Assembly: GCA_019058315.1 (NCBI GenBank)
Contig: JAHPZH010000006.1
Coordinates: 96,001-160,000, forward strand
DNA from: Candidatus Helarchaeota archaeon
Lineage (GTDB): Archaea > Asgardarchaeota > Lokiarchaeia > Helarchaeales > RDOG01
Length of the DNA: 64,000 nt
Direction of reading: 5' to 3'
Shown piece by piece: positions 28,466 to 29,793 of this stretch; within the stretch, counting starts at the first letter, position 1; each line of letters starts with the position of its first letter. A program made the position numbers and the translations under genes. The notes beneath the pieces are model-generated. The model was given only the letters and a program-made list of their open reading frames with translations. It was not told the origin of the DNA and did not search any database.

Positions 28466-28591
28466 TGGAGCCTCAGCCGGGGAACGATCCCGGGACCTTT
28501 GCCTTTCTGGCAGATATTATTACCAGGGCAACGCTTTACCGTTGAAATTTTCAGATCGGCATGATTTTTCTACCAACTGAGCTACTGAGGC
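28466..28591 (-). tRNA. tRNA-Thr(GGT); introns at 22/23 (28536-28569, probably two tandem introns) and 37/38 (28505-28520); CCA encoded
   Basis: Spliced: GCCTCAG TA GCTC AGTTGGTA GAGC G TTGCC CTGGTAA GGCAA AGGTC CCGGG ATCGTTC CCCGG CTGAGGC TCCA; anticodon BHB helix CTGG/CCAG. Confidence 0.9.
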
Positions 28592-28601
28592 GTAAATTTA
28601 A

Positions 28602-28758
28602 TGGTGCGGGGGATGGGAGTTTCACCAAAATATATAATATTTCGGATTCGAACCCATGAACTCCTACGAGACAGGATCTTAAGTCCTGCGCCGTTCGGCA
28701 CGTTTGTATGACCCCATACAAGTTGTCTCTTTTGTTTTACCAGCTTGGCTACCCCCGC
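28602..28758 (-). tRNA. tRNA-Leu(TAA); introns at ~21/22 (28694-28736, 43 nt) and 59/60 (28619-28646, 28 nt); CCA encoded
   Basis: Acceptor GCGGGGG/CCCCCGC, anticodon arm CAGGA CTTAAGA TCCTG, long variable arm; BHB helices TGGT/GCCG and TTCG/TGAA. Confidence 0.92.
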
Positions 28759-28868: not shown

Positions 28869-29067
28869 TGCCGAAGGAGGGCTTTCCGTCCAAATTCTAG
28901 TAGCTATTTGGTTTCGGACCCTCGATCTCCGGAATACGCGTTTATGGAGCTAAATCCGATAACTTTATGAGTCCGGCGCGTATTCTTCTTGATCATAATA
29001 GATCAAGATTTCTAACCAGGTTTCTCTCCAAGAAAGCTGAGCTTTCCGGGACCTAAGCTACTTCGGC
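28869..29067 (-). tRNA. tRNA-Met(CAT), elongator type; four introns at 15/16 (29021-29052), 23/24 (28980-29010), 38/39 or 37/38 (~28934-28964) and 59/60 (28883-28912)
   Basis: Removing 32+31+31+30 nt gives a 75-nt cloverleaf GCCGAAG TA GCTT AGCCTGGTTA GAGC G CCGGA CTCATAA TCCGG AGATC GAGGG TCCGAAG CCCTC CTTCGGC A. Confidence 0.85.
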
Positions 29068-29174
29068 TATGTTAATTCTTACAAGCTTTATTAAAATAAC
29101 CTTAGTTTATAGAGTTTACTATTATTTATATTAAACCTTTTTCTTAAAGAAATGAGTAAAACTAATTAAATGAA

Positions 29175-29250
29175 TGGAGCCTCTGGGGGGATTCGAACCC
29201 CCGACCATTGGCTTACAAGGCCAGCGCTCTACCAACTGAGCCACAGAGGC
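29175..29250 (-). tRNA. tRNA-Thr(TGT), intronless, CCA encoded
   Basis: GCCTCTG...TGGC CTTGTAA GCCA...GGGGG TTCGAAT CCCCC CAGAGGC TCCA. Confidence 0.96.
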
Positions 29251-29265
29251 ATTATTTAGATGATA

Positions 29266-29374
29266 TGGTGGGAAAGGTGAGATTTGAACTCACGATCCCG
29301 TGGTTTCTTTTTGATCCTTTACAATTTTCGGATATCCCAAGCCACGAATCATAGCCAAGCTAGACCACTTTCCC
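29266..29374 (-). tRNA. tRNA-Pro(TGG); canonical 37/38 intron (29305-29335, 31 nt); CCA encoded
   Basis: GGGAAAG/CTTTCCC acceptor, CGTGG CTTGGG|A CCACG anticodon arm, GTGAG TTCAAAT CTCAC T arm. Confidence 0.92.
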
Positions 29375-29379
29375 ATATT

Positions 29380-29603
29380 TGGTGGGGTTGAAGGGATTTT
29401 CACCGAAATTTCGATTATTTCGGATTTGAACCCTTGATAAGTCCTCTGGATAAAACTCGTTCATCCAAACGAGTTACTCCTAGTGGTACGCTCCAAAATT
29501 ACATCATCTGGAATCAGTATTTTTATTCTATTTTTCTGGAGCCCGTTGTCATACCGTGTTTTCTTAAGCTCACAATATGTGAACACATCTAGACCACAAC
29601 CCC
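29380..29603 (-). tRNA. tRNA-Trp(CCA); four introns at 15/16 (29559-29588), 37/38 (29475-29535), 43/44 (29441-29468) and 59/60 (29397-29424); CCA encoded
   Basis: Removing 30+61+28+28 nt gives 77-nt GGGGTTG TG GTCT AGCACGGTA TGAC A ACGGG CTCCAGA CTCGT TTATC AAGGG TTCAAAT CCCTT CAACCCC ACCA; BHB helices GTCT/AGAA, CTCC/GGAG, ACTC/GAGG, TTCA/TGAA. Confidence 0.88.
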
Positions 29604-29636
29604 TTTTTATTCAGCTTTTTTAGGAGGTTTTTATGT

Positions 29637-29793
29637 GAGAAAATAATATTTTACCGTGTTCGGAACGAGAACGGATGGTTCCATTGGCCTATGGCCGACC
29701 ACGAATGATCAGCTAACTGGATTTCTCGTTGGCTCTCGCACAACAGAAGTTCCAATAACGCACCAAATGTTTAATTCGGCATATTATTTCCTC
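29637..29793 (-). other. BHB processing stem flanking the permuted 5S rRNA
   Basis: 13-bp outer stem GAGGAAATAATAT (29793-29781) / ATATTATTTTCTC (29649-29637), central helix GCCG/CGGT, 3-nt bulges AA|T and AA|A. Confidence 0.85.
29651..29774 (-). rRNA. rrf: Circularly permuted 5S rRNA gene (canonical 3' half 29774-29706, TTCG linker 29705-29702, canonical 5' half 29701-29651)
   Basis: 5' half TGGTCGGCCATAGGCCAATGG...CCGTTCTCGTTCCGAACACGGTAA has loop C (CCGAAC); 3' half TTAAACATTTGG...GCGAGAGC...AGCTGATCA supplies the helix II partner, helices IV/V with a GAGA loop and the helix I partner. Confidence 0.9.

Follow-up and report, generated by a model that had tools for sequence, protein, structure and literature searches.

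A conserved tRNA-Trp(CCA) gene with four inserts, very probably endonuclease-type introns, in a Helarchaeales-like Asgard archaeon

Up to three introns per tRNA gene is the figure given in the tRNAscan-SE 2.0 paper (PMC8450103) and in a 2015 review (PMC4390854), so that the classical literature bears out the usual maximum quoted in a preliminary description of the locus reported here, which was made from the sequence alone. In 2024, introns were reported in 92-95% of the tRNA genes of Atabeyarchaeia and Freyarchaeia (PMC11291895), and an October 2026 preprint counts 2.2 intervening sequences per Asgard tRNA gene, with up to five in one (10.64898/2026.10.13.758758). The census in that preprint starts from genes that tRNAscan-SE had called (10.64898/2026.10.13.758758), and tRNAscan-SE seeks non-canonical introns only in candidates already found by its archaeal model (PMC8450103). 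The (alpha-beta)2 type of splicing endonuclease has a broad specificity and accepts relaxed motifs and non-canonical positions (PMC5829648). Additionally, two euryarchaea, Pyrococcus abyssi and Haloferax volcanii, use the intron of their pre-tRNA-Trp as a box C/D RNA that guides the Cm34 and Um39 modifications (PMC4033218).

Here, we describe a tRNA gene in a 64,000-nt window (the whole stretch of DNA that was analysed, to which all plain positions refer) of a Helarchaeales-like (Lokiarchaeia) Asgard archaeon. The minus-strand stretch 29603-29380 (224 nt) yields a 77-nt tRNA-Trp(CCA) after the removal of four introns, as the preliminary description had proposed and as both the sequence and an alignment to an ortholog bear out. 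The insert sites and lengths (30 nt at 15/16, 61 nt at 37/38, 28 nt at 43/44 and 28 nt at 59/60) stand as claimed, and so does an internal exon of only 6 nt, ACTCGT at 29474-29469, the same letters being found uninterrupted in the aligned ortholog of G001, a member of the same family but of another genus. In our view, the locus is very probably a conserved chromosomal tRNA-Trp(CCA) gene with four endonuclease-type introns, which would be spliced by the endonuclease and the ligase RtcB.

The joined sequence is called tRNA-Trp(CCA) by ARAGORN and is among the full-length calls of that program; the first Trp splice that ARAGORN called used cuts at 36/37 and 42/43, one base off from those adopted. 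The spliced tRNA forms a full cloverleaf with U8, A14, G18G19, A21, U33, a TTCAAAT T-loop, G53-C61, A73 and the anticodon CCA, and its CCA 3' end is encoded in exon 5. The features of the gene, of its neighbours and of the candidate endonuclease subunits are collected in Table 1.

Table 1. Exons and introns of the tRNA-Trp(CCA) gene, neighbouring tRNA genes and endonuclease paralogs; tRNA positions follow standard numbering
Feature	Position	Strand	Description
Exon 1	29589..29603	-	15 nt, tRNA positions 1-15: acceptor 5' strand, U8, D-stem 5' strand, A14 G15; alignment block 1-15
Intron 1	29559..29588	-	30 nt at 15/16 (D-loop); relaxed BHB
Exon 2	29536..29558	-	23 nt, positions 16-37: remaining D-arm, anticodon stem 5' strand, anticodon CCA, G37
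Intron 2	29475..29535	-	61 nt at canonical 37/38; hBH motif
Exon 3	29469..29474	-	6 nt ACTCGT, positions 38-43: anticodon stem 3' strand; alignment block 130-135
Intron 3	29441..29468	-	28 nt at 43/44; HBh'-type motif
Exon 4	29425..29440	-	16 nt, positions 44-59: variable loop, T-stem 5' strand, T-loop to A59
Intron 4	29397..29424	-	28 nt at 59/60; strict hBHBh'
Exon 5	29380..29396	-	17 nt, positions 60-76: T-stem 3' strand, acceptor 3' strand, A73, CCA
tRNA-Pro(UGG)	29269..29374	-	One anticodon-loop intron; Rfam 45.6 bits; G001 ortholog intronless
tRNA-Thr(UGU)	29175..29250	-	No intron; completes conserved Trp-Pro-Thr order
tRNA-Met(CAU)	28869-29067	-	199 nt, 75 nt after removal of four inserts of ~30-32 nt
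tRNA-Leu(UAA)	28602-28758	-	157 nt; D-arm insert and strict 59/60 intron; gene missed by scanners
tRNA-Thr(GGU)	28466-28591	-	126 nt; D-arm insert and strict anticodon-loop intron; gene missed by scanners
184-aa endonuclease paralog	G000:C12:5149-5703		Closest crenarchaeal EndA chains: 3P1Z_B (3.9e-45), then 3AJV_B, 2CV8_A, 2ZYZ_B
201-aa endonuclease paralog	G000:C1:331411-332016		27% identical to the 184-aa paralog; N at the catalytic H position

The preliminary description had expected the unspliced gene to be invisible to standard scanners. Indeed, ARAGORN fails to report it whether intron mode is on or off, and the Rfam tRNA covariance model returns nothing on it even at E<=10, finding only the Thr and Pro genes in the window. 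ARAGORN without intron mode finds only tRNA-Thr in the window; intron mode adds tRNA-Pro(UGG) but labels it Ser(UGA). The same model (RF00005) scores the tRNA-Trp orthologs of G001 (one intron) and G003 (two introns) at 46.5 and 40.8 bits, respectively, and misses those of G005 (two introns) and G006 (three introns) as well as the present gene (four introns), so that detection declines with rising intron number. What escapes ARAGORN and the Rfam model is the whole gene, not merely an intron. Genes that go undetected in this way make the tRNA sets of such genomes look incomplete and lead censuses of called genes to undercount.

Comparison with relatives rested on G001 and on three genomes of the same order but of a sister family (G003, G005 and G006). 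G001 has the Trp-Pro-Thr gene order found here, and its tRNA-Trp gene contains a single intron of 63 nt at 37/38. An affine-gap alignment of the 224-nt gene to the mature tRNA of G001, made without use of the BHB motif, returned the blocks 1-15, 46-68, 130-135, 164-181 and 208-224, that is, the exons of the preliminary description, with an identity of 68/75 (G001 as reference). Exon 2 differs from the G001 ortholog by a single base change (A26 here, G26 there). The orthologs of G003 and G005 have two introns each (37/38 and 43/44), and that of G006 has a third, at 59/60. Pairing is conserved as well: of the 21 cloverleaf pairs, the four genomes compared (this genome, G001, G005 and G006) all retain 20, nine of which covary on both sides, and position 13:22 is unpaired in all four tRNAs. 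Acceptor pairs 4-6, formed between exon 1 and exon 5, covary, and the anticodon-stem pairs 27-31/39-43, formed with the 6-nt exon, covary between families. This ortholog comparison is the decisive evidence against a chance fit. When 60 relatives were searched with the pattern GGCTCCAN..TTGGAGC, true orthologs were confined to the order; matches in other families were rejected as Trp orthologs, since they are not tRNA-Trp genes.

The same DNA recurs in independent metagenomes. A 739-nt contig from run X2, which belongs to a different study, matches 28955-29693 without gaps and with two differences; those listed for this run within the span, at 29194 and 29324, affect the Thr and Pro genes and not the Trp gene. 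Shorter pieces of the Trp gene come from runs X3 and X4, and all six variants listed in it (X4 contigs: 29405, 29409, 29462, 29508, 29512 and 29530) fall in introns, a placement expected by chance in ~8% of cases and thus a hint of constraint on the exons.

The preliminary description had also raised the question of whether this is the only Trp tRNA of the genome, and it is not: a second tRNA-Trp(CCA) gene (G000:C3:628659-628744) lies in a tRNA array on contig C3 and shares with the first its type of acceptor stem, A73 and the encoded CCA. In the D-arm, the anticodon stem and the T-stem, by contrast, the spliced four-intron copy and the array copy are unlike. That array (G000:C3:627504-631783; L046) holds ~20 co-oriented tRNA genes in 4.3 kb. 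The only insert in the second copy is the 10-nt ATGTGGAGAA at 37/38, whose central helix, CUCC/GGAG, is perfect and whose inner helix is lacking; we know of no BHB tRNA intron as short as 10 nt. Because a second copy exists, the four-intron copy need not be essential, and one might suppose that the compact C3 gene supplies the Trp tRNA and that the four-insert copy is a decaying duplicate, a pseudogene with accumulated insertions. The close agreement of the two copies in acceptor type, A73 and CCA, with the 10-nt insert as the only interruption of the C3 gene, speaks for this explanation, as does the imperfection of two of the four motifs considered below. We nevertheless judge it quite unlikely, since all exons of the four-insert copy are intact, every conserved tRNA nucleotide is present, and none of the 20 Watson-Crick or wobble pairs has been lost, some of them showing compensatory substitutions when set against the orthologs; moreover, the listed strain variants occur in introns only, and each insert is bounded where the BHB register is best, the register of the preliminary description being, for all four introns, the best among those that yield the identical mature sequence. 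Finally, the four-insert copy is syntenic and conserved, whereas a BLAST search of 20 relatives returned no ortholog of the array copy. We therefore regard the four-intron gene, on account of its syntenic orthologs, as the core copy.

By the published definition, a BHB motif consists of a 4-bp central helix with 3-nt bulges on opposite strands, each strand being cut after the second bulge nucleotide; as a background rate, we took the frequency of each motif class at 200,000 random boundaries in the window. The preliminary description had credited every intron with a 4-bp helix, which is true of introns 2 and 4 (4/4 central pairs) but not of introns 1 and 3, where a purine-purine mismatch at the outer pair leaves 3/4. 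Intron 4 combines UUCA/UGAA with an outer helix (h) of 5 bp, the T-stem, and an inner helix (h') of 7 bp, a class met at 0 of the 200,000 random boundaries. Intron 2 has CUCC/GGAG, 6 bp of h (the anticodon stem) and 0 bp of h' (2e-4 of random boundaries), and intron 3, with the mismatch A38.G, has 3 bp of h and 8 bp of h' (1.5e-4). Intron 1, with the mismatch G10.A, has no h and 2 bp of h', a class found at 2.9% of random boundaries. A flanking helix (h or h') of at least 2 bp is thus present for all four introns. An upstream GGAG of intron 2, considered by hand as an alternative 3' splice site, was rejected for want of an outer helix.

The motifs of introns 2, 3 and 4 are individually convincing. 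That of intron 1, given the frequency of its class, is weak evidence by itself, and this insert is read as an intron because of the comparison with orthologs and because the adjacent tRNA-Met gene has an insert at 15/16 that, read by hand, appears to offer the same geometry and the same G10.A mismatch. Fewer than four of the inserts might accordingly be endonuclease introns, those at 15/16 and/or 43/44 being removed otherwise or disabling the gene; both have the 3/4 central helix, and intron 1 lacks almost any flanking helix. This seems very improbable to us. Three other genomes also have an intron at 43/44, the inner helix of intron 3 spans 8 bp, and the neighbouring tRNA-Met insert shares the very geometry that looks deficient in intron 1. 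We know of no other mechanism of excision for inserts of 28-30 nt in archaeal tRNAs. The endonuclease predicted from this genome would moreover be of the broad-specificity type (PMC5829648).

The remaining alternative, a chance fit or an assembly artefact, starts from the premise that four free deletions turn almost any AT-rich stretch into a cloverleaf, and ARAGORN indeed calls a tRNA of some kind in 1,643 of the 1.23 million distinct products obtained by enumerating all combinations of up to four BHB-compatible deletions that bring the stretch to 74-80 nt (for which reason ARAGORN acceptance was rejected as a discriminating test), but its probability is close to nil, given that alignment to an ortholog without three of the inserts reproduces the solution of the preliminary description, that covariation supports every stem, and that contigs from three other samples contain the same DNA.

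For a tRNA-Trp gene with four endonuclease introns, the genome encodes the expected enzymes. Two of its proteins match PF01974/PF02778 (the N- and C-terminal domains of the endonuclease), and RtcB is present (582 bits). The chains closest to the 184-aa paralog (3P1Z_B, 3AJV_B, 2CV8_A and 2ZYZ_B) we take to be (alpha-beta)2 or crenarchaeal enzymes. The 201-aa paralog, with its catalytic histidine replaced, fits what would be expected of a structural beta subunit, and the pair suggests a putative crenarchaeal-type (alpha-beta)2 heterotetramer in an Asgard genome, with the qualification that the alpha-like gene of 184 aa lies on a small contig of 31 kb in a bin with a contamination estimate of 6.6%.

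We propose that the Trp precursor, once transcribed and processed at its ends, would be cut by this endonuclease at eight sites through recognition of the BHB motifs and that RtcB would then join the five exons (15, 23, 6, 16 and 17 nt). Stems tether the exons to one another: exons 1 and 5 through the acceptor stem, 1 and 2 through the D-stem, 2 and 3 through the anticodon stem, and 4 and 5 through the T-stem. The 6-nt exon serves two motifs, nucleotides 39-43 being the outer helix of the 37/38 motif and nucleotides 38-41 the central helix of the 43/44 motif. Sharing this exon makes the two motifs mutually exclusive, which argues for refolding between the cuts: the precursor would refold between the 37/38 and 43/44 cuts, and splicing would be stepwise rather than simultaneous. 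The minimum free energy (MFE) fold predicted for the precursor contains the acceptor stem, the T-stem and the hairpin of intron 4 but none of the bulged motifs. The absence of bulged motifs is expected from nearest-neighbour energies and says little in either direction. The 43/44 motif is likewise not formed in this fold, where the 6-nt exon is taken up in a 9-bp hairpin with the interior of intron 3; this predicted hairpin may be a third competitor for the exon.

The 37/38 intron recalls the euryarchaeal Trp guide intron in several respects. It contains the elements CUGA (29517-29514), GAUGAUG (29508-29502) and UUUUGGAGC (29498-29490). The last of these is the complement of G31-G37 and of two further bases in the intron, with which it forms a 9-bp helix in the MFE fold. 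The blocks CUGA, GAUGAYG and UUUGGAGCG, together with GG.G of the central helix, are kept across five genomes (in G003 as judged by eye). Immediately 5' of CUGA, the introns of G005 and G006 have a stretch that pairs with positions 35-41, the fifth pair being position 39; this position-39 guide is absent from the aligned intron 2 sequences of the present genome and G001. The likeness to the euryarchaeal guide thus consists in the same tRNA, the same 37/38 site, the CUGA and GAUGAYG boxes, and a 9-nt anticodon-loop complement. The difference is that the intron here has no terminal box C or D (by eye in four aligned genomes, neither RUGAUGA near the 5' end nor CUGA near the 3' end) and that no CUGA follows the anticodon-loop complement. 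No Rfam C/D family matched intron 2, and UUUUGGAGC as a guide for Cm34 was rejected for now, since the spacing rule puts UACC, not CUGA, in the place of box D. The 37/38 intron may possibly represent a half guide or a relic of one, and we do not count it in the box C/D guide family.

The introns differ in their distribution among relatives. Each of the five genomes of the order has a homologous 37/38 intron, with conserved blocks in common, and to judge from this comparison the intron is ancestral in the order. The 43/44 and 59/60 introns are present in some relatives: G003, G005 and G006 have an intron of different sequence at 43/44, where G001 has none, and the Trp gene of G006 has a similar intron of 28 nt at 59/60. 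The 15/16 insert, seen in this species only, is a clean insertion relative to G001, G003, G005 and G006. A series of 1, 2, 2, 3 and 4 introns within one order gives studies of intron gain and loss a dated series. When each of the four introns was compared with its own genome (blastn-short), no further copies appeared beyond 14-18-mers at chance level, which lends no support to recent intron transposition. The 59/60 intron of the neighbouring tRNA-Leu gene is similar to intron 4 of tRNA-Trp (79% when intron and exon are taken together), a likeness partly forced by the motif.

The Trp gene is the first of a co-oriented array in the order Trp, Pro, Thr, Met, Leu and Thr. The genes from Trp to Thr(UGU) are separated by 5-18 nt, tRNA-Met is preceded by a spacer of ~107 nt, and Leu and Thr(GGU) lie 10 nt apart; with the common orientation, these distances make transcription as one precursor plausible. 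Of the four inserts of tRNA-Met, a gene found by neither ARAGORN nor Rfam, the D-arm holds two and the anticodon loop a third; the fourth, at 59/60, has a perfect motif. The tRNA-Pro gene of this genome has the anticodon-loop intron (29304-29335, minus strand) as its only insert, that of G001 has none, and an X2 contig joins 29303 to 29336 with a single A between them, from which it appears that a close relative or strain has a tRNA-Pro gene without the intron, like G001. In the sister family, the tRNA-Pro genes beside Trp (G006, G005 and G003; L021, L023 and L050) have D-arm inserts, that of G006 also having a T-loop insert; such differing intron sets point to rapid intron turnover between genera.

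Immediately beyond the other end of the Trp gene, 3 nt upstream of it, 29606-29702 (minus strand) gives a weak match to the Rfam 5S rRNA model (21.6 bits, below the cut-off). The first ~66 model positions, corresponding to the 5' half of 5S, align well. The genome gives no other 5S-like match, and weak 5S matches occur near the Trp loci of G003, G005 and G006 as well.

The novelty of the Trp gene is modest, as heavily interrupted Asgard tRNA genes have already been published. The preliminary description had held that the gene exceeds the limit of three introns; with four, it does exceed the classical maximum, but it sets no record, since up to five per Asgard gene have been reported (10.64898/2026.10.13.758758). 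The understanding of the archaeal tRNA splicing mechanism is unchanged by it. The 6-nt exon, common to two exclusive motifs, does offer a concrete substrate for tests of splicing order. Tentatively, and with a good deal more doubt than confidence, we also put forward three propositions jointly: that the gene is a test case of obligatory refolding-dependent splicing, that its 37/38 intron is a degenerate relative of the euryarchaeal box C/D guide, and that whole core tRNA genes are hidden from annotation in Helarchaeales-like genomes. If the second holds, the Trp intron-guide would be older than the Asgard/Euryarchaeota split; if the third holds, published censuses would be too low, having been drawn from called genes.

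Among described systems, the three-intron genes of Thermoproteales, namely Pyrobaculum calidifontis tRNA-Glu(UUC) and P. islandicum tRNA-Pro(UGG) (PMC4390854; PMC8450103), likewise have multiple BHB introns per gene. Common to both are motifs of which some form only after refolding or after removal of a neighbouring intron and an (alpha-beta)2 endonuclease, both of which are predictions for the present gene and genome. The present gene departs from them in having four introns rather than three, in belonging to an Asgard archaeon of mesophilic sediment rather than a Crenarchaeote, and in showing no sign of recent intron copying. The nuclear tRNA genes of Cyanidioschyzon merolae (PMC3728597) also have ectopic, multiple BHB-type introns and are missed by ordinary scanners; these are, however, genes of a eukaryote, some of them permuted, whereas the Trp gene described here is unpermuted. 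The other Asgard cases (PMC11291895; 10.64898/2026.10.13.758758) share several short BHB-type inserts, many of them non-canonical, and D-arm inserts missed by annotators. The present gene differs from these in coming from a Helarchaeales-like archaeon, that is, from another class and one absent from the main text of the preprint, and from the census of called genes in that its entire sequence passes undetected by ARAGORN and the Rfam model. It therefore adds, from a lineage outside the recent Asgard censuses, a comparatively validated case of four introns in one archaeal tRNA gene.
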